From the IMG/VR virus record IMGVR_UViG_3300047476_001057, positions 32,001 to 96,000 of that record: a stretch of DNA of 64,000 nucleotides; one strand, 5' to 3'. Source of the stretch: a virus. Position 1 is the stretch's first letter; each line of letters begins with the position of its first letter. The notes beneath the pieces are model-generated. The model ran no database searches, was not told the origin of the DNA, and saw only the letters and a list, made by a program, of their open reading frames with translations. Below are positions 31,880-62,350 of the stretch, in pieces. The position numbers and the translations under genes were made by a program.

Positions 31880-32746
31880 ATGAAAACAGAGCCTAAATAC
31901 CGCACGTTTGATGAGCTGCTTAATGAGGTGGCTGCAGATTTTACTCAGTATAATAATGAGGGTATGATTGAACCTGGACAACTAATCAAAGTTGCTCAGA
32001 GAGTCAGTTATGACCTGGGTCTTCGTATTCATGGTACCAAAGAAAAAATATTAGACATAGAAAAAAGCAAGACTAAACTACCTGATGATTTCTATGTACT
32101 TAACTATGCTATGCTTTGCGGCAAGTATACTGTTTCTCAACCTGTTTTGCAGGGACGCCAGACTGAAGATATTATTCTTTCTTCTAATCTCTGCAAGAAA
32201 TGCGGAGCTCCTGATCCACAATGTACCTGTGAAAAAACATACACTGTAGAGTGCAAAACTGGTGAAAAGGTATTTGTACAGGTTGTAGAGAAACGTGCTT
32301 ATGAAACCAAGACTTATGAAACTTTTGAAAGGGTTGACATTAGTCCTGTAACCGGAAGACAAGATGCCTTAACTACCACTGGTAGAGCTGGTTACATCAA
32401 GAACGGATTCATTTACACAAACATAGAAGAAGGAAGGCTGTACATTTCTTATCAGGGTGCTTTAGAAGATCATGACGGAAATCTTCTTGTACTGGACCAT
32501 CCTATGATTAATGAGTATTATGAATATGCTCTTAAGCAAAGGATCTTGGAAAACCTGTTTATGAACGGAGAAGATGTGACACAGAAAATGCAGTTGGTTG
32601 AGCAGAGGTTAAGAGCAGCCCGTAACAATGCTCTCACTATTGTTAACACTCCAGACTTTGCTGAAATGAAACAGCTGTGGGAGACAAACCGTAAAGCTCA
32701 GTATGCAAAATATTACGACATGTTCAAGTCCGGATACGGCTGGTAA
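31880..32746 (+). CDS. Putative tail tubular / ring protein
   Basis: TKLPDDFYVL, YIKNGFIYTNIEEG, ISYQG..LVLDHPMINEYYEYAL; carries a CxxC-x6-CxC insert. Confidence 0.55.
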   Translation: MKTEPKYRTFDELLNEVAADFTQYNNEGMIEPGQLIKVAQRVSYDLGLRIHGTKEKILDIEKSKTKLPDDFYVLNYAMLCGKYTVSQPVLQGRQTEDIILSSNLCKKCGAPDPQCTCEKTYTVECKTGEKVFVQVVEKRAYETKTYETFERVDISPVTGRQDALTTTGRAGYIKNGFIYTNIEEGRLYISYQGALEDHDGNLLVLDHPMINEYYEYALKQRILENLFMNGEDVTQKMQLVEQRLRAARNNALTIVNTPDFAEMKQLWETNRKAQYAKYYDMFKSGYGW

Positions 32747-33113
32747 ACTACCTGCACGTGCTACCACTACGGTGAAGTTTCCAACTTACAATTGTAAACT
32801 TGTCATTACCGTAGTAGATAGTGTTAAAAAGGAAGTGGAAAAGCTATATAAAAAATATAAGATAACAGAGCCGTTTGATTTTGAAGCTGAAGGAGCCTTA
32901 GTAATGCCTGGTACGGAAACATATTATCTGTTATTAGATAATGCATTTCTGACACATAATACAATAGCTCATGAAATATTTCATGCTGCTGTAAGAATAA
33001 CTGAAGACAGAGATATTACTGATGAAGAAGCCCAGGCGTGGATGGCAGGACATATAACAGAGACATTGTATAAGTTTTTAGAAAAGAAGAAGCTACAAGT
33101 AAAACATGGCTGA
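32703..33113 (+). CDS. Small zincin-like metallopeptidase (HExxH)
   Basis: IAHEIFHAA (32970-32984) followed by DEEAQAW. The true start may be downstream of 32703 (e.g. GTG near 32772). Confidence 0.65.
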   Translation: MQNITTCSSPDTAGKLPARATTTVKFPTYNCKLVITVVDSVKKEVEKLYKKYKITEPFDFEAEGALVMPGTETYYLLLDNAFLTHNTIAHEIFHAAVRITEDRDITDEEAQAWMAGHITETLYKFLEKKKLQVKHG

Positions 33114-37680: not shown

Positions 37681-40600
37681 TGAATAAGCTGTTACAACTT
37701 TTAGTAAGCACTGGAGATGTTTCTCATAAAGTGTTACCTACCTATCAGATGAGAGGAGAGGTTAGATCTATATCTCGTGGTGACATTCAGGGAGCTCCTA
37801 TGCCTGTTATAAAAATGACAGCTGAGGAAGCTAAGAGATTGCAAATGCAGAAGATGGCTCAGCAGGCTATCGCTAACCAGGCTACATTAAAACCCGGTTC
37901 AAAACTTACAGATCGTGATGCTCTGTTAGAAAAGAACAGACAATATGCTGCATCAACAGGTAAAAGATTTAACCCTAACACCGGTGGTGTAAGTCCATTG
38001 TTATCTGATAACACAGACAGAACAATGAGACGTGTCCAGGAAAACATAGTTAATCCGATGTTGCAACTGGAAGGTCTAATGACTGGAGCAGGTCTTGTTG
38101 GTAAAGGAGCAGGTAGTATAATGCAAAGAATTGCTCCGGCAATTGAAAACATAGGGTTTAATACGTCACGTAATATTAGAAAAGCATTTCCTGGTTTTGT
38201 AGATAAAAGAATGAGGGCTATAGATAAAGGAAACAAGTGGAGTCAGGAATGGTACAGTAATCCAACTATTCAGCAACGATATAATGATTGGATTGAAGAA
38301 TCTTCTCTGTTAAAACCAGAAGCGGCTTTATATCAAAGTCGTATAATGGACATTGCACCTACTGTTATTCGAGGTATCAATCTTGATAAGAGTTATGCTA
38401 ACAGACTTAGTGGTACTATAGCCAGAGATAACTATGAAAAACTTTTAAAAGAAGGAGCTATTACTAAGGGGACTACAGATCGTTTTGGGTTTGGAAAAAA
38501 TGATGTTGTAGGAAGGTATAGTCACGGAAGTAATGATGCTCTTATAGATGTATTGCATCCAGCTCTTGGTAGAAAGTTTAATACTGCTAATACTACAGTG
38601 CATGAAAACATTCATGCAATTACCAGAGGAAATGACGGACTTACTCAGAACGCTAAGAGTTTTTTAAAAGCTCCTTTTAATAGATCAACAGGTAACAAAT
38701 ATGATAAATATTTAACTAATCCAACTGAAGTGCATGCTCGCATTGGTGAACTCAGACGTCAGTTTGGACTAACTCCTGAAACAAAAGTAGATATATCTAC
38801 TATGAATAGAATTATGGAGTTGGGAAAACAAGGTAAAACTTCTGTTGATAAAAGATGGTTTGAGCTTGTTAATGACAAATCTAAATTAAGATGGTTGTTT
38901 AATAATGCTCCAACTGTTACAGTACCTATAGCTGGTGCAGCTCTATTAGACCAAAAAAGAAAAGGTGGAGTCATTATAGATTCTCGTGGTCAATGGGCTT
39001 ATCCTGGTAAACAAACTATAGTACCTACACCCACTGGGCAAATAACCATGCAGGGTGTTCCCTATCCTGTATATGGACAAGATGAAACTGGCTATGGTCA
39101 GATGATGTATCCTGATGGTGAATATGAATTTCCTGGTGAGATGGTGTATGAAACACCCATGATGAGTAAGGGTGGACAGCACGGTGGTCTTGACCGCTGG
39201 TTTGCAGAAAAGTGGGTAGATGTAAAAACAGGTAAAGCATGTGGCAGACAAGAAGGTGAGAAACGTAAAGGATATCCTGCCTGTCGTCCTTCCAGAAGAG
39301 TGAGTGAGGATACACCAAAAACAGCATCAGAACTTTCTAGTTCTGAGCGTGAGAAATTCAAGAGATCTAAAACTTCAAGTGAACGTATAAACTATCAACA
39401 CCGTAGAAAAGAATATGGTGGAGAACAAACTGAAACAGATATGACTAACAAACCGAACAACCCGTCATTATGGTCCAGAGCTAAGTCTTTGGCTAAACAA
39501 AAGTTTAATGTATACCCTTCCGCATATGCCAATGGTTGGGCTGCTAAGTGGTATAAATCTAAAGGTGGTACCTGGAGAAAAGCTGAGTATGGTATGGAAG
39601 TACCTATGATGGCTGAAGGTGGTAAACCTGAGTGGCTTATGGAGGCTCAGCTTAAAGCTCAAGGTTATTCAGGAGATGCACTCCGTCAGAAGATGGCTTC
39701 TATGGCTAATGGTGGAGAACCTCAGAATGCAGGTTTTCAGGCATTGCCTGAAGCTGTTCAGGAAAAGATTATGAATAGCATGGCTTATGGTGGATATATG
39801 GGTGAAATGGCTTACGGTGGTAGTGCTCAACAAGCTGCTATTGCTATTGCCATGAAAAAAGCAGGTAAAAAACCAAAGTCTATGGCAGATGGTGGAGAAC
39901 CTAACGGTGAGATGGCACTCGGTCAGATGGCTGCTGTACAAGATAAAATGAATAAGCTTCTTAAGTTTGTTAGACCAGAAGATAACTTAGATCCATGGAT
40001 TGCTTCTAAGCTTGCTGTAATGGATCACAGTGCAGACGCTATTGCGGACTACATGATGTACGGTCCTGATGCTGAAGAGATGGAAGAGCAAGAAATGAAA
40101 GGTGGCGGCTATGTTGTTACAAGAAGCAACGATCGTAAAGGTAAGACTCATAAAGTGACTGGTCCTGACGGAACTGTTAAATACTTTGGTGACTCGAAGC
40201 TTGGTCAGCATCCAAGAGATCCAGAAAGAAAAGCTGCTTTCTATGCACGTCATAAAAAGAACCTTGAAGGTAATCCATACTTCCGTGCCTTTGCAAGAGC
40301 AACATGGGAGAACGGTGGACAGATAGACGAAATGGCAAACGGTGGTTATATCGGTTATGATGGAAAGCGTCACATGTCTTCTACACCCACATGGTCTGGA
40401 AACATGGGTTATCAAACTGGTGGTGAACCTTTGTGGCATGCAAACTGGAACGATGCTGAACAATCTTATGAATCTATAGATCCGATTGCAGAACAGTTTA
40501 ACCAGGATGTAGCAGCTATGCCAGCACGTGCTGTATCTATGAATGTTCCTGCAAGTGCTCCTGTTGCTAAAGCAGTGGCTCGACCACGTAGCAAAGGATC

Positions 40601-41471
40601 TAGCTACAGTGTGGTTGACTACATGAATAGCCTAGATATGCCATCTGATTATGCTACACGTAAAGCCCTTGCAGAAGAGTATGGTATAAAAGGATACAGA
40701 GGAACTGCTGATCAAAATATGATGTTGATTTCTGCTATCAGTCAAGCAGTAAAGTCTCAGGGATCTAAAGCAGCTGCTGTTTCTACACAATCAGGTTCTG
40801 CGGACTATGCTATGAATAGCAGTAATATGCTTAGAAGAGGTTACACTGCTTCTAGTAACCCATTCATGTTTGGTGAAATACCTCAAAGACCAGCTGTAAA
40901 AACTTCTGGTGCAGCTAAAGCTGCTGCAGCTAAAAAAGTAAATGCAGCTAATGCTCAAGATGCAGAAGATGCAAGATCGTTTGCTAAGTATAAAACAGAA
41001 GATCCATATTTCTTTGCAGAAGAATCTGATCCATCGTGGGTAAAGGCTATTGATATGCCTTTTACTTACTTAAGAGATCTTGGTGCCCAAGTTGTTTTAG
41101 ACCAAGACTTAATGGCATTAGGTCAACTACTTGCTCTTGGTGCAGGAACGAGGTTTATTAAGGGTAAATCTAAGATAGAGCCTTACTACGGAGGACAGAA
41201 AGCTTTGCCAAGAATGCCTGGTAAATCACTGCCTGCTCCAGCTGCCCCTGGTCCAAGAGGTCCTATTCCTGGACCTGCAAGTGGTGGATACATTAAGCCA
41301 GGAGTTCCAGGTACATCTCCAAGAGGTTTTGAAATTCCAAGTGCTGGTTTAAGAAGTCCGGGTTATCCAAGGTTTGCTCAAGGTGGACCTGTAGTGGGCG
41401 ATGAAATGGAAGTAACTCCTGAACAACTTGAACAGCTTCGTGCACAAGGATATCAGTTTGAAATAATCTAA
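37677..41471 (+). CDS. Mosaic cargo / internal virion protein with GG-delimited modules
   Basis: 1264 aa; HENIH zincin domain, several small basic modules, a DUF3597-like SVVDY..RKALAEEYGIKGYRGTADQN module, 13 xxxGG motifs. Start overlaps the muzzle stop (ATGA). Confidence 0.6.
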   Translation: MMNKLLQLLVSTGDVSHKVLPTYQMRGEVRSISRGDIQGAPMPVIKMTAEEAKRLQMQKMAQQAIANQATLKPGSKLTDRDALLEKNRQYAASTGKRFNPNTGGVSPLLSDNTDRTMRRVQENIVNPMLQLEGLMTGAGLVGKGAGSIMQRIAPAIENIGFNTSRNIRKAFPGFVDKRMRAIDKGNKWSQEWYSNPTIQQRYNDWIEESSLLKPEAALYQSRIMDIAPTVIRGINLDKSYANRLSGTIARDNYEKLLKEGAITKGTTDRFGFGKNDVVGRYSHGSNDALIDVLHPALGRKFNTANTTVHENIHAITRGNDGLTQNAKSFLKAPFNRSTGNKYDKYLTNPTEVHARIGELRRQFGLTPETKVDISTMNRIMELGKQGKTSVDKRWFELVNDKSKLRWLFNNAPTVTVPIAGAALLDQKRKGGVIIDSRGQWAYPGKQTIVPTPTGQITMQGVPYPVYGQDETGYGQMMYPDGEYEFPGEMVYETPMMSKGGQHGGLDRWFAEKWVDVKTGKACGRQEGEKRKGYPACRPSRRVSEDTPKTASELSSSEREKFKRSKTSSERINYQHRRKEYGGEQTETDMTNKPNNPSLWSRAKSLAKQKFNVYPSAYANGWAAKWYKSKGGTWRKAEYGMEVPMMAEGGKPEWLMEAQLKAQGYSGDALRQKMASMANGGEPQNAGFQALPEAVQEKIMNSMAYGGYMGEMAYGGSAQQAAIAIAMKKAGKKPKSMADGGEPNGEMALGQMAAVQDKMNKLLKFVRPEDNLDPWIASKLAVMDHSADAIADYMMYGPDAEEMEEQEMKGGGYVVTRSNDRKGKTHKVTGPDGTVKYFGDSKLGQHPRDPERKAAFYARHKKNLEGNPYFRAFARATWENGGQIDEMANGGYIGYDGKRHMSSTPTWSGNMGYQTGGEPLWHANWNDAEQSYESIDPIAEQFNQDVAAMPARAVSMNVPASAPVAKAVARPRSKGSSYSVVDYMNSLDMPSDYATRKALAEEYGIKGYRGTADQNMMLISAISQAVKSQGSKAAAVSTQSGSADYAMNSSNMLRRGYTASSNPFMFGEIPQRPAVKTSGAAKAAAAKKVNAANAQDAEDARSFAKYKTEDPYFFAEESDPSWVKAIDMPFTYLRDLGAQVVLDQDLMALGQLLALGAGTRFIKGKSKIEPYYGGQKALPRMPGKSLPAPAAPGPRGPIPGPASGGYIKPGVPGTSPRGFEIPSAGLRSPGYPRFAQGGPVVGDEMEVTPEQLEQLRAQGYQFEII

Positions 41472-43199
41472 CTTATGAAAATACGTATTACTAAAAAAGG
41501 TCTTCCTAAAGCCCAGATGTGGAATAGTCAGCCTGGTGTTCAAATGCAAACACCGGCTCAATCTAGCTATAACTGGATGAATTTCAGCCAGGAGCAGGTT
41601 CCTTTACCACGCACTACGGTTATTAATCCTGATGGTACACAAAAAACCACTGGTAATTTTGGTGAACCTACTATACAATATAGAATGTCTGAACAGGGTA
41701 CACCTTTGAACCAGGGTAATATTGTACCTCTTAATACCAGACCTAATATAATGAAAACCCTTCAGGGAGTATCAACAGTAATGAATGCTATTTCTCCGGT
41801 GGCTGATCTTCTTGATACCAGAAGAAAGAATAAAGAGATTGAGCAAGCATACAGAGACAGTCTTGTAAGGATGGGTCCTGTTGATTATACACAGAACCGT
41901 GGTGACTATGAGATCAATACTGGTATGGTAGATCCGTATAACACAGGTGCTAAAAGTAAAGGTCAGTTTGCAGGAGCTTATTATACTCCTATGGCACAAG
42001 ATGGTCTTAGTCTGGGTCCTATTTCTTTTAGTGAGGAACCTGTAAGACGTAATGTATATCAGACAGCACCTCTGGAAATAACCAGAAGTGTAGCAGCTTC
42101 TACTTATGTAAAACCTCCGGTAGTTAAAAATATGTCTGTAGAAAAACCATCTGCTGCAGGATTTAAAGATTTTATTGCAGCTAAAGAAAGCGGTGGTAAT
42201 TACAGAGCTTTACCTAAGGATAGTTCTGGTAAACTTGTTTCATCTGCAGCAGGTAAATATCAGTTTTTGTGGAATCAGCATAAAGGTTGGATAAGCAAGG
42301 TGACAGGTGTTTCTTCTAAAGAAGAATTTCTTAATAACCCAGAAGCCCAGGAAAAAGCTTTTGAATACTGGGATGCTACAGTGCTTACACCTAACGCAAA
42401 CAAGATTAAACAGCAATTAAGTGTAGCTGATTCTGTAGAACAAATAAAAGCTAAAATACATTTTGCAGGACCTGCTGGTGCGTATAGATTCTATTCTACA
42501 GGACAGGAAACCAGAGATGCTTTTGGAACAACAACATCTACCTATGAAATGGGTGGAGAAAATACACAGCCTATGAAAATACGTATTACACAAGAACCCA
42601 TGGACAACATGGAATATGGCGGACAGCTTGGGTATGGTTTTGATTTGGGAGGACGCCGTGTTTACACTGATATGCCTGAGTCAACATCTGATACAGTAAA
42701 TAATACTATTGGTCCTGTACCTAGAGAGATGGCTAATATAGAAGCTGAGAAAGGTGAAACCATGTTGTCTGATGTAGACGATGATGGTATGATGGAACAC
42801 ATGAAGATTGGTGGTAAGCGTCACTCTGAAGGTGGTACTCCACTAGCTGCAAAACCTGGTGACTTTATCTTTTCAGATACAAAGAAGATGAAGATTAAGA
42901 ATCCTGCTTTACTTGCACTATTTGGTAAGTCAGCTAAGAGTGGTGGTTACACACCTGCACAACTTGCCAAGCAGTATGACATCAATAAGTACAAAGCCAT
43001 CCTGCAGGATCCAAACAGTGATGCTGTATCTAAGAGAACAGCTGAAATGATGCTGGGTAACTACGAGAAAAAGCTTGGTATGATTTCTCTTGTACAAGAA
43101 GCCAAGAAAGGATTTCCTCAGGGTATTCCTGCTGTAGCAGAAAGCGTAATGCCTGAAGCTAAGTTTGGTGGTTACCTTGAAGAGTATCAAGTAGGTGGT
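38952..43199 (+). repeat. Dispersed [M/F/Y/W/K/A]-x-x-G-G motifs in two adjacent cargo proteins
   Basis: GG codons start at 38964, 39171, 39417, 39618, 39711, 39789, 39816, 39891, 40101, 40314, 40341, 40419, 41382, 42552, 42618, 43167 and 43194. Confidence 0.8.
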
Positions 43200-50836: not shown

Positions 50837-53800
50837 ATGAACAAGTGTAGTATAAGTATCCAGACTTTTGCTGACTTTACCAAGCAACTGTTGGCACAAG
50901 ATGCCAAGTATAAAAACTTTGCAGAAGTGGCAAAGTTTATCATCAAACGTCCTGGACAACCGGATAGTGTAAAGATGGTAGCTCTTAAAGGGCTTGCCAA
51001 GATATATGACCAGCTGTCTAAAAAAGATAACACTTTTAGTTTCTCTGCAGATGACAGCAAGATCATTGATGTAGACCTTGAGAAGGATAACTTAGAAACA
51101 CAGTTTAAGAATATTGCTGCTAACTACCAGGTGCGTCCGGTAAGTGGTCCTTCTATAGACGCTATCAGAAGTGACATAAAGAACCTTGCAACACTTCCTG
51201 TATTACAGCTGCAAGATGCTGTTACCAAAATCGTAAAAGACATAGCGGCCCTTGCCAAGACCAACTTCCGTAAGAGTGCAGACGAGATGGTTAAGTCTAT
51301 TGGTGAACTCTATGACAGAGCTATCAATGAACTTGCAAAGAATACAGGTGTAAGTCCTATCATCCGTAACTCTCTCACACAGCTTCTTAACACAGAAAAG
51401 AACATTGCTACAGAAGCTGCCAGTGATTATATACCCTTAAAGAACACTATCTATGGTGACACCAAGCTTATTGTAAAGAAAGATGGTAGTGTGTTTGAAG
51501 TGTTAAAAGACAACAATGGTAAGTTTATAGACATTAACTCACAGGATGGTACAACCGAAGTTGTATTTGACAGAAGTGCCGGTGACCAGTTGTTTAATCT
51601 CAGGGTTGACTCTTCACCTTTTGTAGGTGGTAATGATGGTACACAGTATATTTTTTCTCACAATGAACTGAGAAATGGTATGAACCTCCGTGACCGTACC
51701 GGAAAAGTGATGACCAACCAACTTCTTGGTTTGGACAATCCCCTTTCTGCTTTAGAAGTAATAGCATCACGTACAGAGGTAGACCGCAACCAGGATCGTA
51801 TCCGCAGGATCCGTACTGAGATCCCTAACCGTACACTTGAAACACAGGAAGTAGCCTCACAGCAAAAAGCTTTGCTTGCAGGAAGTCCTGTACTCACTGT
51901 GTTTTCTCCAGTAGATGGAGCACAGATCCAGTTCAGAATTCCTGGACAACAGGGAGCTATGATACTATACGGTATAGATAACTATGCTATAGTTTATCCT
52001 GATAACCGCACAGTGCCTGTTGACTTTTCTGAGTCTCAGAAAGAACTTATTCTAAAGCTTGCCCGTAAGAACACCACTAATGAAAACGGTGTAAACGTAA
52101 CAGAACCTCTTACAGAGGAGGACTTCTATAACCTGAAAGCCAGCTACGAGAAGTTTAAAGATTTCAAGAAAGCTGTACAGGAAATACTTGACCTTAACAA
52201 AGACCAGGCTGAGGTTGTCTTACCGCAGGCTTTGGTTAATACATATATCAGTCTTGCCCGTACAGGTGAGACTATTGCTGTTGCCCCCACTGCCGATCAG
52301 CAAGCTAGTTTATCTACACTTTTAAATAAAGAAGGCAATCCTGGTCAAATTAGCTTTAACGTTGTTGAAGCTCTTGATGATGAAAACTACTCAGAACCAC
52401 GCCGCGTAACCAAACCGATCATGGTTGCCAAGCAGGGTGGTGTGTGGACATTCATATCAGACCTGAAGGGTAATGAGATGATAGCAGTAGAGCGTGATGG
52501 CAAGACAGAATACATAACGTTTTCTGACTACATGCAAAACGTTCTTAATGTTTCTCCTGAGATTACTATACCAAATTTCCCAAGTGCTTTTGCATGGTTG
52601 TACCAGAAAGCTAACGGTAAGTTTCAACCTATTGCACTTAAGTATACACCTGTAGAAACAAGTGCAGATATTGCACGTCTTGCCATGGGCTTTGGTCAGC
52701 TGATCAAAAAGATGAATGATCCCCAGGCTGAAGGACCGAGAGAGCTCAGAAACTTCAACCTGAACAACTTTGGGTTTTCTCCTTACAACCCAACAGGAGC
52801 AACCAGCTTTGCCGGTGACTTTGATAGTTTCAAAGATCCAAGTGGTGAACGCAGTGTATCTATCCAGATCCATCCTATGACTATGAACTGGAGCCAAGTG
52901 CCACGTGATGTAAGAAAAGCTCTTACTATTTACATAGACGTTCCTGTAATGAATGCATTCTTACAGGTGGTACGTAAGGCTGCAGAGATGCCTGCCTTTA
53001 AATCACAGAAGCTTGACCTGAACACAACTGCCGGCAGAAATGCCCTGGTGAAGTTTATAGATGAAGATCCTCAGCTCCGTAAAGAGTTAATGGGTGCTTA
53101 TGAAGATATCAATACCCATATCTACCGTAAGTTTCAGGGTATAGGAGAGAAGCTTACCAAGACTTCTTATAACGGTGAGTTTGACATACCTAAGATCTAC
53201 ACCATTATGGAAAATGAGAAGAGTGATCTTAGTGGCAGATGGAAGCTTAAAGTGAAGGACCGTCAAAGTGGTAAGGATATAACCAACATGGATAACTACC
53301 GTAGCATGACTACGGAAGAAGTGTTCAGCTTTGGTGGTATACAAGCTGTGTTTGCAGGACCAAATGTTTCTGCTGTACAGACAGTAAACAAACCGGCACC
53401 GGTAACACAAAACCCGGCTAACAATACTGCTGCAGATAATGTACCTGGTACTACAGGTGGTATGCAGATAGACCTTGACTTTGAAGACGGAGCTTTTGAG
53501 CTTGCCATGGACACAGAGCTTTTCCAGGCTTACCAGGCAGGACAGTTCCAGCAGGAGCTTGACTGGATCAAGGCTAACCTTCCTAAAGATATAACAGTAG
53601 AAGACCTTGCCGAGATCATGGATGATCTGAAAGCTGAAGGTCGTGTACTTGGTTACTTTAGAGACAGGGTTATCTACCTTAACGAGCAACTTTCAGGCAG
53701 GGGATCTGGATACCATGAAGCATTCCATGGTGTGTTTCGTAAACTCATGGACGCTGCAACACGTGAGCGTTATCTAAACCTTGCTAAAGAAAAGATGGGA

Positions 53801-56800
53801 GCTGTTTCCAAAGAGCAGATTCAGGAGTTCCGTCAGAGACGTTCTCTCTATCATCTTTCTAATGCACAGGTAGTAGACCGTATGGCAGAAGAATACCTGG
53901 CTGACAGGTTTAAGTCATATAAGTTAGAAGGACGTGGTGCCCAGGAAGGATGGTTAAAGAAACTTCTAAACCTAATAGACAGCATCATTCGTTTCTTTAA
54001 CAAGAACTATAAAGAGATAGACAGCCTGTTCCAGAGAATAGACACAGGTTTCTATAAGAACGCACAGATAGTAGGAGAATTCAAGGAAGGAGCGTTTGAA
54101 ATGCTGCCTACCCGCAGCACTCTTGTAACAGGACCAAACGGTAAAGCTGTACAGAGAAAGAACTTCCTTAATAAGATTGAGCAGGCACAGCTTGTTAACC
54201 GTCTTGCTGAACTGGCTTCTTTCTCAGTAGGTAAAAACTTTGAAGAGAAGTTTGCAGCAGCCCGTAAAGAGTTAATTGCTGAACTAAACATAGATAACCT
54301 GGTAGCCCAGAATCCTTCAGAGGAAGCAGCTATTCGTGCACGTTACGAATCTATCCTCCAGGATAAACTATACACACTTGGTGTACCTGTATCCATGATC
54401 AATGAAACAAGTAATGCTGCTATGGACCAGAACATTAGTCTGATCCAGGCGGACCCTGCACAGCTGGCAGCTTATAACAAGCAGCAGGCTGATGCACTGA
54501 AGTCACTGAAGCAGCAGGTAAACCAGAAGCTGAACAAGATTTCTATAGCAAACATGTACTTTGATCCTGAAGCTATGCTCAGTGAAGAGGAGTTTGATGA
54601 AGATGATCTTGGTGATGAAACAAACTACGAGGATAGCTTTGTAAACATGAACACCCTGGATGGTCTTAGCCGCCAGTTCCGTTCATTCTTTGGGCTGATC
54701 TCTTACATCCATACAGATGACCTAGGTATAAAAACTACCCGCATGGTAGATGGAGCTACAGTGTTTGATACCATGATGAAGATCTTGGCTGACACTCCTG
54801 TAGAGAACATGATGACCCGTATGGAAGAGACCCTTGAAAAGATGCTGGAGTCTGAGAACATGCTGGCATATGAGCGTCTTAATGCAGTATGGGATAAGAT
54901 GAAGAAGTACTTCGGTCTTAACGAAGACAACCAGCCTACACGTAACACCAACCTGTACAACCAGTTTATTGATGTATTCAATGTAGCTGATCTTTCTACA
55001 GATGTTTATTATGTAAACACACGTAATGACTCTTCATCACTAAGGGTTATTGATGCCACTATACAAAATGACATCAACCAGTACTACGAGAAGCTGAGAA
55101 GAAAGTATGAGACCAGCTTCATGAAGAAGTCTGTTAAAGAGCGTGAAGAGATCCTGCGTCTGGCTAAATCTGTTATCAAAACAGAAGTGACCACACCAAC
55201 AGACTTGGGTAGCCAGAGTTTTAACTCACTGAAGGCTAGAGCCAAGAAAGTACACAAGGCTCTATCTGATATGGGTATAGTGCTGCCTTTGCATACTATC
55301 ACTTACTCACTCATTGCTATTGACGTAAAAGAAAACAAAGTGGAGCTTAAACCTAAGAGCAAAGCTTTGAAGCAATACATCCTTGACCAGGAGTTGATCA
55401 ACACTGGTGCCTACCTTGACAAAGACTTCTTTGACAAGCTTGTTAGATATGTAGATGAAAACACTAACATCTTTGACAAGACTGTAGATAAAGATATTGC
55501 TGCAGATGGTACACTGGGTCTTAGTGATCTTGAAAAGAACCAGCTCCGTTTAAAGAAGAGAGGTCTTGGTCTTATCAATTCTGTACTGAAGAAGACCGGA
55601 CGCTACGTTGTTAAATATGATCTTGACACTGTAGTTTCTGTGTTCCGTAATGCAGAAGGTAAGAACGTTTACCGTTATGTACGTTACACGCCACCACTGG
55701 TTATCTCCCAGTCTTTGAGAGAGAACGGATGGCAGGGTACTTATACTAACTTCCCTGTTATTGCAAGATTCTTGCAGGACAACCCACTCACTGCTAACAA
55801 ACCTGAGAACCTGCTCTACTTACAGAACCTTGAGCTCAGAACTTTTGGTGGTGCACGCCAGACACTCAAAGGTGTAGAGCGTGACGGTGTTACTGCAAAG
55901 ACTATTGACACTGCAGGATACTATCTTTCTTATGTGCTGATGTCTATGAACCGTAAGACAACGGTTAATAACAATGCAGCTATCACCACTTTCTCAAGGA
56001 TGCTTACACAGAATGAGGCATCTAACACTATATACATGGTACCTAATCTTTACAAGAGAATGGTTACCAGTGCTGGTTATGTATCTGAAGACAAGCAGAA
56101 CCTGGTAGTAAAAGGTTTTGTAGATGTTATCAAGCAGGAATACCAGCGTATACAAAGAGAGTGGGCTACACGTAATGACCAGAACAAGGAGAAGTTTAAT
56201 AACTACAACGCTGTTTTGAACCAGGACGGATCTGTAAACACAGAAGATCCATCTCTGCGTGCATACAACTTTAACATGCTGGCAGACTTCTTTGAGTTTA
56301 ACAATCCTGCATCCAGGACTGCTAATCCTCAGCGTGCTGACATCCGTAACCAGCTTATACAAAGTGCAAAAGATGGTGTGAAGTTTGACAAGCTTGACCT
56401 TGGTGCACTGGAGCGTGAGCTTCTTAACTATGCAGAAGAGAAGTTTGCTGCCCACTTAGATATACTGAAGTCTTACAAGCTTGTTGAAGAAGACCAGCAG
56501 ACTGGTGGACTTACAAGCCGTCTGATCCCTGACAGCTACAGTGTTGATGGTACATCTGTCAGTATTGAGACAGAAGATTCCAACCTGGAGTCTTATCTTA
56601 AAGATGTATACTTCAACGTATTTATAAACAACCTGCAGGTATCACAGTTCTTTGACGGTGATATTGCCATGGGTGTTAAGAACTTTGCTGACTACTTTAA
56701 GCGTCAGAAGATGAACGTTGCTGCCGGTCCTTCTATGAAGAGTGGTAGCCATAATGTAGCTTATGTAGATGAGATCACTTTCCTTATCAATGAGTCTGAA

Positions 56801-59800
56801 CTTGAAGAAGGTCAGTATGATGAGAATGACGAGATGCCTGAAGGCTTTGCAGGGCGTGCCCAGAAAGTCAAAGGCTTTGATGGTCAGTCTATCACTACCA
56901 TAGAGCACCGTATTGAACAATACCGTAAGCAGGGTAGGCTTGTAGATGATGTAGAAGGTCAGAAGTCTGTAGAAGAGATTCTTAAAGCCAGCCGTTACAG
57001 AAAACTTACAGAAGAGGAAGTAGAGTTCCTTAAAGATAACAAGGTGGTACTAGGTCCAAAGAAAACCGTAACCGGTGCTTTGGTGTACTACCATAAGCAA
57101 GCAGAACACATACTGTTCCGTACAGACAGTTCTTACATGGTTGTACCGGACGGCATGACCCGCAGCCAGGTAGAGAAGAGACTTGCTGAACTATATAACC
57201 AGGCAGACATCTTTCGTTCCAAGTTACGTAATGCAGATACATATGATGTCACTGCAGATGGTGGTGTGGAGTTTATTGAAGACCAGCTCCGTGATCTGTA
57301 TACCCAGATACATCGTTATTGGGAACCACTACCTCACCGTGTTGCCCATCACAATATGCTGAACTCAATGGAGACTAACGACATTGATCAGCTCATGGAT
57401 CTTACAGCTTCCAAAAAAGCTACACTGCTTCCTGTAAAAGTTAATGAAAGAGGCATTACTGACCTTGGCAAGTCTAAACTCAGTGTTCCTAACATATATA
57501 AGTTTGACCAGGTAGAAACTTCTAAGGTGTCTACTGACATCAGTTCTACTACACAGCTTCAGCATTTGATAGATGCAGACATCAACCTTGACGATAAAGA
57601 GGTGGACTCTAATCTGAAAGATGCAGTGTTGCAGTATCGTAAGCTTACCGGCAGACTTTCTGAGGTGAGCCTGGACAGACTGAACAACATCATCAAAGAT
57701 GAAAATGGTAATGTAGACGTACGTGCTATTATCCGTAGCATGAGAGATGGTCTTGAGTCACAGGGAGCTGACAGCAATACGCTGAAGTTCTTTGAAATTA
57801 GAGACGACCAGCCTGTACACAACATCAATCTTCCTTTGCTGAAGAAGATGTTTACTTACTACTACTTTGCTTTCTACTCTAACAATGTGTTTAACAAACG
57901 TCAGAGTGGTAGAAAAGACTATATCATTACCAGCTGGGGATACAAGCTTATTGAAGACCGTGCTACCGGTGAAATCATTAAGAGTGACGAGATAGCTAAA
58001 GACCCACAGAAGTATAACGACAACTCTAAGTATAAGCTTCGTTATCCTGGTGTAAAGTATGATGCTGCTAATGATCGCTACATCGTAGAGGTGATGGTAC
58101 CACGTCCATACTTTAAGAACCAGGAAGAGATTGACCTGTTTGAGCGTAAGCTCAGTGAGTTCCTTTCTACCCGTATTCCAACAGAGGACAAGCGTTCTAT
58201 GATTGTGGCTAAGGTGGTGGACTTTATTGATGGTGCTTACCAGAATGCTATCGTCATCCCTCAGATCATACATATCCTGTCAGGTTCTGACCTTGACATT
58301 GACTCTCTCTATTCTCATACGTTTGCTACCTATGAAGACTTCAATGGTAAGCAGAAAGTATATGGTGAGGCAAACACTCCTAAAGAGCAGTTTGTGGAAT
58401 ACCTCCAGAGCATGATGGAAGATAAGACGCTTGCTCCACTTGTAAAAGCAGAACTGGATAAGGTTTATAAAGAGCAAGTTACTGATGTACCTGAGTCTTT
58501 AGAGGATCTTGCAGAAGACCTGAACCTGCCGTTCTATAACTATACAAAGGAGCAGTGGATTGCTGCTTTGGATGAACTGCGTAAACAGCGTAATGATTAC
58601 TATGAGCAGGCACAAGCTATAAAGGAAAGGCGTAAGCAAACCCAGGAAATTTACCAGAGACTTAAAGCTGAGAATGAGCAGATGGTGCAGGAGATCACTG
58701 ATGCACTTAAAGCTTCTCTGAAAGCTGAGGGTATTGACACTACACCGGACGAGTTTGCTGAACTTCTTTGGGAACAGACTTCTGTAATGAGAGAGCGTTT
58801 TCGTGAGCAGGGTAGTCTTCGTGAGTCTTTAGAGCAAATGAATTATAGCATTAAGGTGGCTTATGATATAGTGACATCTGCTAATAACAAGATCCGTAAC
58901 TCCCGTAATGAACTGGAGCGTATCAGCAGACTGATGAAAGTGCTTGCTACACTCAACGTACTTGCCCGTAAGAAGATGCCTGTCACTGTAGCTCAGTATA
59001 CTAAGGAAGCATCTAAGAAAGGATCACTTGTACCTGAGACATTACAGAACGACTTGCTCCAGGCTAAGATGGACATCCTTGGTAATCCTTATACGTTTAA
59101 GAAACTATACATACAAGAACGTTCTGACGTTTCCAGGTTTGAGAAGATAGCTGTGGCTATGAAGAAAACCATCAAGGACGTTATCAACAAGAATAACATC
59201 TTCTCACCAGACGGTATTATTGGATCCCGTGACATGGTGAAGAGTTCCGGTGCAGGTATTGGTATTGCTGCCAACATCAACAAGTTTGCTGCTTTTGCTT
59301 CTAAGAAAGGACTTAGACTTAATGCTCCGGTGTGGAGTGTAAACGGTAAGAACTATGTAGACTTCACTGCAGACAGTGAGAGCCGTCCTATCTCAGACAT
59401 TGGTAACGCCCTGGGTATGCAGGCTGACGCCAAGAGTAATCCTATCCCGGCTGTACTTAATCTTAATGAGGTTAGCTTACCTATCACTCTTGTAATGATT
59501 GCACAGAAGCTTCCGCTTGAGATGGCTATCACGATCAACTCTGTACCACTGGTATCTAAAGTGATCCAGCGTGTTATGGAAGAGAAACGTGAGATCCGTA
59601 CCATAGCTGACCTCTTTAACAAACGCAGTCTTACAAGCATAGCCCGTGAAGAAATGAGCACTGCTATCGAGCAGCTCAAAGAAGACGGCTTGCAAGCTGA
59701 GCTATTTGAAGTAGATGATGAACAGAACATCATCTATGACATGGCAGGTAATCCTAAGTTTAAGAAGGACCTAATGCTGGAATATGAGTTTGACTATACT

Positions 59801-62350
59801 CCTGCAGAAAGAACATCTGCAGAAGAGTTTGGTTTCAAGCTTTCTGATAAGATGGGTATACAGTTATCTGATGCTGCTGCCCAGATCTACCTGCTTAACA
59901 AGTACATCCAGACCAGCAACCTTAACAATGACGTGTTTGCTTTGGGATCTATTCTGAATCTTTACAAGAAACTTAAGCCAAGCTGGAAGAGTGTAGACCG
60001 TACGTTGAAGAACTACGATTATTTCACTAGTGTGTTTGCCAATGAGAAGAGCCAGTTTGCCAACATACAAGAGATCCTTGAAAACTCTCCTGAGTTTAAG
60101 CCATTGATACAAGCGTTGAAAGAGCTATCTGAAAATGCAGAGACCATCCTTATAGAACGTCATCCTGTTATGAAAGCCATTGATGATACTATCAAAGGTG
60201 GACTTCAGGCGTTCAACCTGGATGAACAAGTAGAGCAAAGACTTACTGACCAGATAACTAAGTTCTTTATAATCAATAAGTTCAGAGAGGAAACTGAAGC
60301 AGAGCTTAAGGAAGAACTGGCTAAGCCAACTCCTAATCCTCTGACTATCCAGTCACTGAAGAGTGCTCTTGAAATGTTCAAGGCTGATTTCTGGAAGGGT
60401 GAACCTTCTAATGCAGATGTCACTTCTATAGAGCAGGACTTCCAATATCTAAAAGACAACCATGAGGGTAATCCTTTTGTGGACTATCTTAAAGAACGTA
60501 CACGCCAGGGTATGACTTTCGTTGAAGCCCTGAGCCGTATGAAGCTTGAGAAAGAATATGCAGAAAACATCAATGATGGTTTCTTGTTACTACAGAACTC
60601 AGCTGACAGCCGCAGTAAAATCATAGCCCGTAAGTTGTTCCACTATACACTTGTAAAGGACGGTCTTGGTTATGGTTCTAATACGTTCATCAGCTACATC
60701 AATCCTCAGGACCCTCAAACTTTTGAAAAGATATCCAAGTATCTCAACCAGCTGCAGGCAGGCTTGATTGAGTTTAATAAGAAGAACCGTGCTCTTATAC
60801 AAAAAGGTAAGACAGAAAGTTACTACAAGAAGTTCAATGATCTTCTTAATGATTTCTTTGGTAAGAAGACAGACCTCAATGTATACATCAGTTCTATTAT
60901 CAGCCGTATAGGACTTTATGCAGGTAACAATGACATCATGGTGAAGAGCCGTATGGCACTTATCAAAAGCAAGAAGAGCCGTTTTGCCGGTATAGATCCT
61001 GCTTTGATAGAAGAAGAGATGAAGTATCTGCTTCCTGAGACATACAAGCTCAAACCAAAAGAAGTATATACAGAGCTGGAAGACAACCCTGAGAACATAG
61101 AGTTCTGGTTGCCTACTTCTAAAGAAATGGGTGTGGGTAAGATTGTAATAGATACTGCACAGACCTATTCTAATATATCTAACATCATCCTGTCCCAAAT
61201 GAACATCCGCCAGGGTGCACAGTTTAATGGTGACCAGGGTCAGGTGCAGACTTATGTATTCCCGCTGTTTGTAAAGAACAACTTTGGCCAAGTGTTACGT
61301 CTTACAGAAATAGATGGTACACGTCTCAGTGAGAAAGTAATCAACAACCTGACATCAAAACTCCAGGGAAAATCATATAATGATACTGTATCCGGTGTGC
61401 GTGCTACATACGTAGTTGCAGAACAGGAAGGTACAGACAGTATTCTTAACCTTGGATTCAGTGAGCAGGAAGCTCGTGAGCTTTACAAGTTTGCACAGGA
61501 AGATAATGATAACGCATTCCTTGACATCAGCCTTACAGGCAAGTTTGAGCAGGTGCTTCAGAAACTACGTAACGTGTACAAGGTAGAGCCTAAGCGTCTT
61601 AACCTCTTAGCACGTATTGTTAGAAGTGAAGTGATGAACGGTGCTGCTATCACCTTTGAAAAGCAGAAGAACAACTTGTTCTATGTAGACTACACTGTTG
61701 ATACAAAAGACCGTGGTCCTGTACAACGTAAACTTTACTTCCGTCCGAGTGCTGCAGATCCTCTGAGCATCACTATAGAGATGAGAGAAAGAGAAGTAGT
61801 TACCGGTATAGAAACTCTGGTTAAGCTTGAAGATGACATGCGTGAGTTTCCAGCGGTAGAGATCGAGTTTGTAAAACGTGGTAAGCAATTCCGTGGACCT
61901 AAGGTTGCCAAGCCAGCTAACCCTACCACTAAAGAAATGGTAGATGAAGTGGTGAAAACTTACCAGGTTCCTCAGGGCAGAAAGCTTAAAACAAGACTAA
62001 CATTTACTACCTTTGCAGATACACAGTGGAACCTCCAGAAAGAGAACCTCAACCTGGAAAAACTGGTACAGATCTTCAACGATGTACACACTGTTCCATT
62101 GAACCAACCAGCTCCTGTACAGGAAGCTGCACCTGCTCCTTCTTCATTTACTATCCCAGCCGGTTTTGCACTGCGTCCTGGTGCTCCTGATGTAAAGACT
62201 TATGTATCCCAGATGCGTAAAGTGAGTGACAAGAGTGAGGCTGAGCTAATAGAGATGTACAAGAAGATTAACCTTGTTGCTGTCTCTACAGGGAACATAG
62301 ATGATGTAAGAAAGGACAAAGACTCCGGTGAGTGTATAGCAGAACTTTAA
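50837..62350 (+). CDS. Giant virion RNA polymerase (two-barrel, crAss-like) with zincin domain
   Basis: 3837 aa; GSDLDIDS catalytic DxDxD (58289-58303), upstream TRIPTEDKRS and DYFKR motifs; YHEAFH (53714-53728) plus EEYLAD zincin motif. Corresponds to the known crAss-like vRNAP (phi14:2 gp66 type, DFDID). Confidence 0.88.
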   Translation: MNKCSISIQTFADFTKQLLAQDAKYKNFAEVAKFIIKRPGQPDSVKMVALKGLAKIYDQLSKKDNTFSFSADDSKIIDVDLEKDNLETQFKNIAANYQVRPVSGPSIDAIRSDIKNLATLPVLQLQDAVTKIVKDIAALAKTNFRKSADEMVKSIGELYDRAINELAKNTGVSPIIRNSLTQLLNTEKNIATEAASDYIPLKNTIYGDTKLIVKKDGSVFEVLKDNNGKFIDINSQDGTTEVVFDRSAGDQLFNLRVDSSPFVGGNDGTQYIFSHNELRNGMNLRDRTGKVMTNQLLGLDNPLSALEVIASRTEVDRNQDRIRRIRTEIPNRTLETQEVASQQKALLAGSPVLTVFSPVDGAQIQFRIPGQQGAMILYGIDNYAIVYPDNRTVPVDFSESQKELILKLARKNTTNENGVNVTEPLTEEDFYNLKASYEKFKDFKKAVQEILDLNKDQAEVVLPQALVNTYISLARTGETIAVAPTADQQASLSTLLNKEGNPGQISFNVVEALDDENYSEPRRVTKPIMVAKQGGVWTFISDLKGNEMIAVERDGKTEYITFSDYMQNVLNVSPEITIPNFPSAFAWLYQKANGKFQPIALKYTPVETSADIARLAMGFGQLIKKMNDPQAEGPRELRNFNLNNFGFSPYNPTGATSFAGDFDSFKDPSGERSVSIQIHPMTMNWSQVPRDVRKALTIYIDVPVMNAFLQVVRKAAEMPAFKSQKLDLNTTAGRNALVKFIDEDPQLRKELMGAYEDINTHIYRKFQGIGEKLTKTSYNGEFDIPKIYTIMENEKSDLSGRWKLKVKDRQSGKDITNMDNYRSMTTEEVFSFGGIQAVFAGPNVSAVQTVNKPAPVTQNPANNTAADNVPGTTGGMQIDLDFEDGAFELAMDTELFQAYQAGQFQQELDWIKANLPKDITVEDLAEIMDDLKAEGRVLGYFRDRVIYLNEQLSGRGSGYHEAFHGVFRKLMDAATRERYLNLAKEKMGAVSKEQIQEFRQRRSLYHLSNAQVVDRMAEEYLADRFKSYKLEGRGAQEGWLKKLLNLIDSIIRFFNKNYKEIDSLFQRIDTGFYKNAQIVGEFKEGAFEMLPTRSTLVTGPNGKAVQRKNFLNKIEQAQLVNRLAELASFSVGKNFEEKFAAARKELIAELNIDNLVAQNPSEEAAIRARYESILQDKLYTLGVPVSMINETSNAAMDQNISLIQADPAQLAAYNKQQADALKSLKQQVNQKLNKISIANMYFDPEAMLSEEEFDEDDLGDETNYEDSFVNMNTLDGLSRQFRSFFGLISYIHTDDLGIKTTRMVDGATVFDTMMKILADTPVENMMTRMEETLEKMLESENMLAYERLNAVWDKMKKYFGLNEDNQPTRNTNLYNQFIDVFNVADLSTDVYYVNTRNDSSSLRVIDATIQNDINQYYEKLRRKYETSFMKKSVKEREEILRLAKSVIKTEVTTPTDLGSQSFNSLKARAKKVHKALSDMGIVLPLHTITYSLIAIDVKENKVELKPKSKALKQYILDQELINTGAYLDKDFFDKLVRYVDENTNIFDKTVDKDIAADGTLGLSDLEKNQLRLKKRGLGLINSVLKKTGRYVVKYDLDTVVSVFRNAEGKNVYRYVRYTPPLVISQSLRENGWQGTYTNFPVIARFLQDNPLTANKPENLLYLQNLELRTFGGARQTLKGVERDGVTAKTIDTAGYYLSYVLMSMNRKTTVNNNAAITTFSRMLTQNEASNTIYMVPNLYKRMVTSAGYVSEDKQNLVVKGFVDVIKQEYQRIQREWATRNDQNKEKFNNYNAVLNQDGSVNTEDPSLRAYNFNMLADFFEFNNPASRTANPQRADIRNQLIQSAKDGVKFDKLDLGALERELLNYAEEKFAAHLDILKSYKLVEEDQQTGGLTSRLIPDSYSVDGTSVSIETEDSNLESYLKDVYFNVFINNLQVSQFFDGDIAMGVKNFADYFKRQKMNVAAGPSMKSGSHNVAYVDEITFLINESELEEGQYDENDEMPEGFAGRAQKVKGFDGQSITTIEHRIEQYRKQGRLVDDVEGQKSVEEILKASRYRKLTEEEVEFLKDNKVVLGPKKTVTGALVYYHKQAEHILFRTDSSYMVVPDGMTRSQVEKRLAELYNQADIFRSKLRNADTYDVTADGGVEFIEDQLRDLYTQIHRYWEPLPHRVAHHNMLNSMETNDIDQLMDLTASKKATLLPVKVNERGITDLGKSKLSVPNIYKFDQVETSKVSTDISSTTQLQHLIDADINLDDKEVDSNLKDAVLQYRKLTGRLSEVSLDRLNNIIKDENGNVDVRAIIRSMRDGLESQGADSNTLKFFEIRDDQPVHNINLPLLKKMFTYYYFAFYSNNVFNKRQSGRKDYIITSWGYKLIEDRATGEIIKSDEIAKDPQKYNDNSKYKLRYPGVKYDAANDRYIVEVMVPRPYFKNQEEIDLFERKLSEFLSTRIPTEDKRSMIVAKVVDFIDGAYQNAIVIPQIIHILSGSDLDIDSLYSHTFATYEDFNGKQKVYGEANTPKEQFVEYLQSMMEDKTLAPLVKAELDKVYKEQVTDVPESLEDLAEDLNLPFYNYTKEQWIAALDELRKQRNDYYEQAQAIKERRKQTQEIYQRLKAENEQMVQEITDALKASLKAEGIDTTPDEFAELLWEQTSVMRERFREQGSLRESLEQMNYSIKVAYDIVTSANNKIRNSRNELERISRLMKVLATLNVLARKKMPVTVAQYTKEASKKGSLVPETLQNDLLQAKMDILGNPYTFKKLYIQERSDVSRFEKIAVAMKKTIKDVINKNNIFSPDGIIGSRDMVKSSGAGIGIAANINKFAAFASKKGLRLNAPVWSVNGKNYVDFTADSESRPISDIGNALGMQADAKSNPIPAVLNLNEVSLPITLVMIAQKLPLEMAITINSVPLVSKVIQRVMEEKREIRTIADLFNKRSLTSIAREEMSTAIEQLKEDGLQAELFEVDDEQNIIYDMAGNPKFKKDLMLEYEFDYTPAERTSAEEFGFKLSDKMGIQLSDAAAQIYLLNKYIQTSNLNNDVFALGSILNLYKKLKPSWKSVDRTLKNYDYFTSVFANEKSQFANIQEILENSPEFKPLIQALKELSENAETILIERHPVMKAIDDTIKGGLQAFNLDEQVEQRLTDQITKFFIINKFREETEAELKEELAKPTPNPLTIQSLKSALEMFKADFWKGEPSNADVTSIEQDFQYLKDNHEGNPFVDYLKERTRQGMTFVEALSRMKLEKEYAENINDGFLLLQNSADSRSKIIARKLFHYTLVKDGLGYGSNTFISYINPQDPQTFEKISKYLNQLQAGLIEFNKKNRALIQKGKTESYYKKFNDLLNDFFGKKTDLNVYISSIISRIGLYAGNNDIMVKSRMALIKSKKSRFAGIDPALIEEEMKYLLPETYKLKPKEVYTELEDNPENIEFWLPTSKEMGVGKIVIDTAQTYSNISNIILSQMNIRQGAQFNGDQGQVQTYVFPLFVKNNFGQVLRLTEIDGTRLSEKVINNLTSKLQGKSYNDTVSGVRATYVVAEQEGTDSILNLGFSEQEARELYKFAQEDNDNAFLDISLTGKFEQVLQKLRNVYKVEPKRLNLLARIVRSEVMNGAAITFEKQKNNLFYVDYTVDTKDRGPVQRKLYFRPSAADPLSITIEMREREVVTGIETLVKLEDDMREFPAVEIEFVKRGKQFRGPKVAKPANPTTKEMVDEVVKTYQVPQGRKLKTRLTFTTFADTQWNLQKENLNLEKLVQIFNDVHTVPLNQPAPVQEAAPAPSSFTIPAGFALRPGAPDVKTYVSQMRKVSDKSEAELIEMYKKINLVAVSTGNIDDVRKDKDSGECIAEL

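Follow-up and report, generated by a model that had tools for sequence, protein, structure and literature searches.

Proteins A and B, the products of two adjacent genes in a 64,000-nucleotide window of viral DNA (bases 32001-96000 of IMG/VR record IMGVR_UViG_3300047476_001057, a 126.6 kb phage rated 97% complete), are polyvalent beads on a string, in which small, independently folding modules sit on disordered linkers. A short motif recurs in these proteins: two glycines with a hydrophobic anchor three residues before the first of them (Phi-x-x-Gly-Gly, hereafter PhixxGG). The motif is real, specific to the cargo proteins and family-wide, it lies in linkers predicted to be disordered, and it coincides with module borders and with the gene borders of relatives. 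It is the junction, leader and tail motif of cargo proteins in a large marine branch of the crAss-like phages, with a weaker echo in the gut crAss phages. It probably marks the places where the cargo chain is cut or docked.

All 17 motifs that an earlier note on this DNA had listed were found where it placed them. In protein A they are KRKGG (residue 427), MSKGG (496), KEYGG (578), MAEGG (645), MANGG (676 and 886), MAYGG (702 and 711), MADGG (736), MKGGG (807), WENGG (877), YQTGG (912) and FAQGG (1233), and in protein B YEMGG (357), MEYGG (379), AKFGG (562) and YQVGG (571), next to a variant MAQDG (173). The stricter form [MFYW]xxGG occurs 11 times in A and five times in B, where shuffled sequences average 1.7 and 0.9 (p<0.001 and 0.0035). 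Its density is 7.1 per 1000 residues in A and B together, as against 0.45 in the other 144 proteins of the phage (17 in 37,888 residues), and M[AE]xGG is found seven times in A and B and nowhere else in the proteome. Plain GG is weakly enriched (19 observed, 12.7 expected), and the signal is therefore the anchored motif and not the glycine content. The four larger proteins encoded downstream of B (996, 1108, 3837 and 2177 amino acids) hold none or one each, as the earlier note had observed. KSKGG at A627 (residue 627 of A), which that note did not list, and ESGG at B237 are situated within folded modules rather than at junctions. A recombination signal at the DNA level was rejected as the source of the motifs, since their Gly codons (GGT-GGA/T) match the genome norm.

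According to the earlier note the motifs fall at the borders of self-contained units, and this holds. When A was compared with 234 relatives by BLAST, 73% of the 835 alignment ends lay 8 residues or less from a motif, compared with 26% on average, and 30% at most, for random placement. Among the 13 GG sites in A425-930, 12 are within stretches that AlphaFold models with a predicted local distance difference test score (pLDDT) below 50; the exception is KSKGG, a part of the YPSAYAN fold, where pLDDT at residue 630 is not low. The run of nine junctions from MAEGG to YQTGG (Table 1) divides short helical modules, a basic peptide and the KYFGD module, and its GG pairs are nearly invariant in an alignment of 40 sequences. 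The view of A and B as concatemers of self-contained modules that form separate genes in other phages also stands. This is exemplified by KEYGG, where A577-579 is the end of 27 relatives and A589 the exact start of 60; in the forms where this joint is fused, GG is present in 35 of 35 (..xGGExxExD-M) and [MFYWKA]xxGG in 34 of 35.

Joints of the B family are marked in addition by an internal copy of the leader (MKIRIT), found in 87 of 119 proteins. Of the 88 such copies, 81 are preceded by GG at a distance of 5-11 residues, and 85 are followed by PhixxGG at a distance of 5-25 residues. The module upstream varies (transglycosylase-like, M23, GH24 and others), and all of them join the core through GG-x5-MKIRIT..PhixxGG. 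The joints of the B family are therefore independent, yet built alike.

The motif is also found at both ends of the chains, as would be expected of a processing or loading signal. Leaders of 15-30 residues ending in Gly-Gly are present at the N-terminus of the B family (MKIRIT..M[AE]YGG) and of many A-family proteins (..KMQKGG or ..YQEGG), although A's own leader is degenerate (YQMRGE). The motif occurs within the first 35 residues in 55 of 366 family N-termini, but in only one of the 144 other proteins of the phage. At the other end, the aligned C-terminus of A is also the end of 104 of the 234 relatives, and the shared C-terminal tail has a GG before it in 150 of 152 proteins, in 96 of them exactly 27 residues from the end. 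The cultured cyanophage Lbo-JY46 (L009, PP438436.1 77867-82844) encodes cargo homologues with a MKIRIIGLPKAQ leader and with FQQGG followed by a ..LGYDFEVV tail; in this phage an RGQW-type beta module is fused to a transglycosylase-like unit. We found no publication on Lbo-JY46 in the literature.

The pattern is widespread. Relatives number 1,708 for A425-925 (word-seeded), 5,588 for A422-1264 (HMMER) and 1,978 for B200-620. A positional profile of 2,471 GG sites from 120 relatives gave Met at position -3 in 32% (a 7-fold enrichment) and Tyr, Phe or Trp in 26%, Ala or Gln at -2, a second hydrophobic position at -6, and mostly Glu or Tyr after the glycines. The linker consensus is thus hydrophobic(-6)-x-x-[M/Y/F/W](-3)-[A/Q]-x-G-G-[E/Y/Q]. 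Six related records, found through the muzzle protein, have motif densities of 7-22 (up to 21.6) per 1000 residues, only in two to four genes that follow the muzzle gene, and the motif was not found in the genes flanking these clusters. The same small modules occur fused without the motif in other phage lineages; the motif is therefore lineage-specific and not required for linking. Our search of the literature found nothing on a Gly-Gly motif in Crassvirales cargo. Linkers of many A relatives (e.g. P0017, P0021 and P0163) also hold the unit GG-MPCYECGG-MYAEGG, with an MxCxxC like that of copper chaperones, inside GG-ended arrays; A and B of the window lack this unit.

Coincidence with gene borders could have another cause, in that the motif and the polar spacer after it are translated remnants of gene ends, spacers and starts, kept by recurrent fusion and splitting of cargo genes, with some junction Met codons still serving as internal starts. 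The gene borders of relatives do map to the joints, some relatives start with MAEGG, MQQGG or MKSGG, Asn, Gln and Glu, whose codons are A-rich, abound in the spacers, and the Met codons A589, A736 and B367, which are gene starts in relatives, have a start-like nucleotide context that ranks in the top 3% among internal ATGs. The remaining ATGs inside A and B, however, are ordinary (mean score -4.0 versus -4.1 elsewhere), about 40% of the anchors are Y, F, W or K and not M, and natural C-termini do not end in GG. Moreover, the residues around the GG pairs vary whereas the pairs themselves are almost invariant, and the Gly codons show normal usage. We regard such a scar as an improbable origin of the motif. 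The proposal that every motif Met is an internal start was likewise rejected, as a start-like context was seen only at A589, A736 and B367, plus B376.

The window is a Crassvirales-like virion module, with ring proteins, muzzle, cargo and giant RNA-polymerase-associated proteins. Genes for tail ring proteins 2 and 1 (Pfam CrAss_Ring_2 and CrAss_Ring_1) lie upstream of the muzzle-like gene, A and B come after the muzzle gene and before the giant cargo genes, and the order of muzzle and cargo is kept in the six related records and in crAss001. In the latter gp44 is the muzzle, gp45 and gp46 are the cargo proteins C1 and C2, and gp47, gp49 and gp50 are the giant RNA-polymerase-associated proteins (PMC10172136). 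By analogy, A and B would be ejected cargo proteins of a marine crAss-like podophage, at the positions of C1 and C2; from gene position and the crAss001 virion data (PMC10172136) we infer their packaging in the virion and delivery to the host.

The likeness to the crAss001 cargo (Bayfield et al. 2023, PMC10172136) includes the place after the muzzle gene with ring genes upstream, and a basic leader at the N-terminus, after which come PhixxGG and a hydrophobic stretch rich in Gly. In gp45, FDTGG, FAEGG and FAYGG stand beside the resolved anchor segments. On the other hand, gp45 has three motifs compared with 13 in A and no embedded enzyme modules, and gp46 is without the motif. Homology of A and B to gp45 and gp46 was not supported by BLAST (best E 0.25-1.1, not significant), and only short features are shared (FQALPE..A.GG and the leader pattern). 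The C1 proteins of gut crAss phages hold 3-5 related motifs each (e.g. MFAYGG and LFDEGG), with a modest excess over shuffles (p 0.004-0.05 in four of five, 0.17 for crAss001 gp45).

Candidate cutters of the chain are zincins with an HExxH site, which are abundant in the cargo region itself. A150-425 is such a domain. The H, E and H and the PTE-HAR are invariant in 16 sequences, the AlphaFold model has a pLDDT of 85.5 and a predicted template modelling score of 0.85, and the top VIA matches are nearly all zinc peptidases (ECE-1 with Z 6.3, PepO, neprilysin, PPEP and thermolysin), with modest Z of 5-6.3; weak Foldseek and phmmer matches point to the zinc peptidase class too. Across the A family there are 68 HExxH sites in 58 of 247 proteins versus 1.7 expected, a 40-fold excess, and HExxH is present in the cargo clusters of five of seven loci. 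Further, all seven genomes examined (this phage, relatives G001-G005 and crAss001, there in gp47) have YHEA[FW]H in their giant cargo protein, which makes this domain a candidate for a conserved reader of the motif. A third gene with a zincin-type site encodes a 136-amino-acid protein with AHEIFHA; the same place and motif are kept in the nearest relative (L091:9598-10008), and it may be a small zincin of the virion module.

Our preferred reading, held tentatively and at somewhat less than an even chance, is that packaged zincins read the motif as a processing code. The cargo chains would be loaded first, through leader or tail signals, and a co-packaged zincin metallopeptidase would then cut at or beside the motif. 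The candidate cutter is the YHEA[FW]H domain in the giant cargo protein, with the zincin modules inside the cargo chains possibly assisting it or taking its place. Cutting might take place in the filled head or after ejection, and would set the small modules free and trim away the leader and tail peptides. It has been predicted that polyvalent proteins are processed by zincin domains (Iyer, Burroughs, Anand, de Souza, Aravind 2017, PMC5512222), and zincins in motif-bearing cargo fit this prediction.

The resemblance to polyvalent proteins as described there (PMC5512222) extends to many unrelated domains within one late-gene polypeptide, shuffling of modules, wall-degrading and zincin-like domains, and predicted host delivery and self-processing. 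The chain of A indeed combines a zincin-like domain with several unrelated ones (beta module, DUF5872, DUF3597 and others), to which relatives add YkuD, glucosaminidase, amidase, GH24 and M23; the beads of A and B comprise basic DUF5872-type units, wall-binding and wall-cutting units and the zincin peptidase. In contrast to the polyvalent proteins, the modules of A and B are mostly tiny (30-80 residues), and one motif marks essentially every joint, leader and tail, whereas the portion of that paper considered here defines no junction motif (PMC5512222). No LPD family of that paper was detected here, and a lead to LPD23 from a protein atlas gave no match.

Several observations weigh against processing by zincins. 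Zincins usually prefer a hydrophobic P1' residue over Gly-Gly. The A-type zincin has only 15 relatives, and A's own zincin was rejected as a universal reader on this ground; HExxH is missing from the cargo clusters of two of the seven loci, and the embedded zincins are diverse in type. Being diverse, and with the A type rare, they hardly qualify as a conserved reader. Natural C-termini lie near GG in only one of the 234 relatives. The motif is absent from the scaffold and the portal, and the capsid protein has two chance-like PhixxGG inside its fold. No HK97-type prohead protease (PF04586, S78) was matched in the 97%-complete genome, where the S77 and ClpP-type families were not searched singly. 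Linkers of relatives hold conserved tandem arrays of GG-ended units of 6-13 residues, with a spacing peak at 9 (e.g. GG-YIPEMMYGG-YDYMDEGG), which exceed the needs of a cutting site and fit multivalent docking or a hinge at least as well as cutting. Finally, the N4 virion RNA polymerase, which has such a zincin domain, is packaged uncut according to the polyvalent-protein study (PMC5512222), and in crAss001 one gp45 chain is modelled across the portal and the giant proteins are intact on gels (PMC10172136, PMC6235969).

An uncut chain is nearly as likely as the zincin processing code. Each amphipathic turn capped by Gly-Gly could then be a multivalent sticker or hinge that holds the extended chain on sites of the portal, ring, muzzle channel or capsid interior, with the beads threading the tail singly and the leaders and tail acting as docking peptides. 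In support of this, T7 gp16 functions with an uncut transglycosylase domain, the searches revealed no dedicated protease, and the motif is not in capsid or scaffold. Structural proteins are a conserved set, and a conserved motif needs a conserved reader. The conserved tandem arrays with their nine-residue spacing and the 3-5 motifs in each of the gut C1 proteins point the same way, as do the gp45 motifs (residues 17, 260 and 559), which lie just outside the ring-resolved segment 214-245 and the portal-resolved segment 425-552 of the one bridging chain that was modelled (PMC10172136). However, the motif is bound to a partner in no resolved structure. A docking or hinge role also leaves unexplained why an exact joint is needed between modules that are separate genes in relatives, why B has an internal leader copy between two motifs, and why zincins are in 40-fold excess.

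The earlier note had pointed instead to a classical Gly-Gly cysteine-protease system. In it an enzyme of the clan CE (adenain, Ulp1, pS273R-like) or a C39-like one, from phage or host, would cut after Gly-Gly. The adenovirus protease cuts (M/L/I)xGG-X, and pS273R of African swine fever virus (ASFV) processes polyproteins at Gly-Gly-X. Like those sites, the motif has two Gly after a hydrophobic anchor and is repeated in what would be virion core precursors from which small basic peptides would be freed, YQTGG resembles the SUMO tail, and leader peptides of 16-30 residues end in GG. The spacing is different, however: clan CE sites have Gly-Gly at P2-P1 and a hydrophobic P4, while the anchor here is at P5, one residue further off, with Ala or Gln at P4, and the motif forms tandem arrays. 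The same applies to double-glycine leaders cut by C39 peptidases (PMC6363468). These, too, are 16-30 residues long and have an amphipathic stretch before a final Gly-Gly, but here the hydrophobic spacing differs by one residue, the motif recurs inside the chain, and neither a C39 domain nor a transporter was seen.

The genome was searched, as had been suggested, for Ulp1/adenain-type, C39 and HK97-type prohead proteases, and none was detectable. Peptidase_C48 (PF02902), C5 (PF00770) and C39 (PF03412) gave no match at E up to 1 in a six-frame hidden Markov model (HMM) search of the 126.6 kb genome, and Pfam and PHROG scans of about 70 genome proteins, with about half of the small proteins outside the scans, found no annotated peptidase. 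The gene between those for portal and capsid is acidic and scaffold-like. The statement that no GG-specific cysteine protease is visible thus holds for cysteine proteases, but it overlooked the zincins in A, in the 136-amino-acid protein and in the 3837-amino-acid protein. The hosts of motif carriers span Bacteroides to a cyanobacterium, so that one shared host enzyme is unlikely. The phage could still encode a very divergent clan CE enzyme; all in all, we give little credence to a classical cysteine protease.

Internal head proteins of T4, with its capsid targeting sequence and gp21 (LxE), and of phiKZ, with gp175 (S/A/G-x-E), are processed by prohead proteases. As in these systems, the cargo proteins here begin with a short leader that ends in a recurring motif, and the motif lies between modules as well. 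The difference is that T4 and phiKZ have a prohead protease and that the same motif is cut in their capsid and scaffold, neither of which holds here.

The crAss-like phage order is not known to have a maturation protease. A bolder and rather unlikely extension of the zincin reading is that Phi-x-x-Gly-Gly is a maturation code of the whole order, and that the giant-protein YHEA[FW]H zincin is a cargo protease which cuts chains of the C1/C2 type in the head or on entry and so releases dozens of small effectors and DNA-binding peptides. Were a cleavage code true, it would give a protease function to the unexplained zincins of virion RNA-polymerase-type giant proteins and provide a natural design by which a single gene can deliver many small proteins. 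Whether cut or anchored, the motif predicts the points concerned and sets module borders for annotating thousands of unannotated proteins. The motif offers a concrete handle on the way in which crAss-like phages store megadaltons of protein and inject them, and Lbo-JY46 is a tractable cultured system in which to study it.

Table 1. Features of the cargo region and neighbouring virion genes, in window coordinates
Feature	Position	Strand	Remark
Major head protein	2902-4521		
Gene for a 136-amino-acid (aa) protein with AHEIFHA	32703..33113	+	between ring-1 and muzzle genes; faint SprT-like Pfam match, E 0.094
Muzzle-like structural protein, 1524 aa	33106-37680		PHROG virion structural protein
Protein A, 1264 aa	37677..41471	+	directly 3' of muzzle gene, position of cargo protein C1
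Zincin-fold metallopeptidase-like domain, A150-425	38124..38951	+	HENIH residues 309-313 (38601-38615), PTEVHA about 40 residues on
KRKGG, first junction, after zincin domain	38955..38969	+	alignment starts cluster at A426-437
Beta-rich module A434-494 (RGQW..ITMQGVPYPVYG)	38976..39158	+	pLDDT above 90
DUF5872 module (RWFAEKWVD..CGR..YPACRP)	39147..39374	+	Pfam PF19197, E 6e-19
MSKGG junction, then QHGG	39162..39176	+	49 alignment ends at A500
KEYGG junction, DUF5872 / YPSAYAN modules	39408..39422	+	gene borders of relatives flank the motif
YPSAYANGWAAKWY (YPSAYAN) module including KSKGG	39441..39581	+	PF19197 positions 1-45; 92% identical to Synechococcus phage proteins
Nine-junction run: MAEGG 39609, MANGG 39702, MAYGG 39780 and 39807, MADGG 39882, MKGGG 40095, WENGG 40305, MANGG 40332, YQTGG 40410 (starts)	39609..40424	+	15 nucleotides each; pLDDT below 50 at each
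DUF3597-like unit	40455..40769	+	Pfam PF12200, E 1e-8; PHROG endolysin-type matches cover A940-1047
FAQGG and conserved 27-residue C-terminal tail PVVGDEMEVTPEQLEQLRAQGYQFEII	41373..41468	+	present in Leptolyngbya phage Lbo-JY46 as well
Protein B, 991 aa	41475..44450	+	open reading frame
Lytic-transglycosylase-like module (AKESGGNY..AAGKYQF)	42138..42503	+	41% identity to Lbo-JY46 protein
Double junction YEMGG-ENTQP-MKIRITQEPMDN-MEYGG	42543..42623	+	B's own N-terminal leader copied internally between two motifs
Tandem pair AKFGG-YLEE-YQVGG	43158..43199	+	alignment ends cluster at B572-576
HEAFH of zincin-like domain, 3837-aa giant cargo protein (residue 960; gene 50837-62350)	53714..53728	+	matches crAss001 gp47, E 6e-8

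Protein A consists of a leader, a Gly-rich hydrophobic stretch, the zincin domain, the array of small modules and the C-terminal tail. Its beta-rich module is the N-terminus of a separate gene in many relatives, which start at A426 or A458; a role as an enzyme was rejected, the fold matches being weak and cupin-like. Pfam upheld the DUF5872 and DUF3597 assignments of the earlier note, while the DUF5754-like one has a faint match only (E 0.33). The DUF5872 module is a stand-alone gene of 78-87 amino acids in phage C72C1 and Prochlorococcus phage P-SCSP2. In the Pfam DUF5872 model the YPSAYAN unit makes up positions 1-45 and the WF..CGR unit 41-110, an order opposite to that seen in the window (39147-39581, + strand). 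As the two units are separate genes in several phages, the DUF5872 family is a composite of two mobile modules. The DUF3597-like unit is probably wall-binding.

Protein B consists of the leader MKIRITKKGLPKAQ, the transglycosylase-like module, the double junction with the second leader copy and a conserved core. The module had been called a muramidase. The ES...AAGKYQF signature and the match to the Leptolyngbya phage protein speak for this, but no Pfam, PDB or profile match was obtained; relatives of B have a GH24 lysozyme or an M23 peptidase in its place. The domain preceding AKFGG-YLEE-YQVGG may be the counterpart of the portal-bound domain in crAss001 gp45.

By its capsid protein, the closest cultured relative of the phage is Leptolyngbya phage Lbo-JY46, with 29% identity. 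A 224-amino-acid ATE_C-like protein (E 2.8e-7) is encoded 6.2 kb before the window (genome 25756-26430, + strand; L006:5756-6430). ATE_C, the C-terminal domain of arginyl-tRNA-protein transferase, is unusual in a phage, and the only homologue, 71% identical, is in the nearest relative; the idea that this aminoacyl-transferase reads Glu N-termini was rejected for that reason. The last giant cargo protein, of 2177 amino acids (genome 94375-100908; L090:375-6905), matches a PD-(D/E)XK nuclease over residues 473-595 (E 5.6e-5). A tyrosine integrase (genome 7898-9010, - strand; L005) has a Phage_integrase domain with SAM-like and arm-binding domains, and its presence in a crAss-like genome suggests a temperate or integrating lifestyle.

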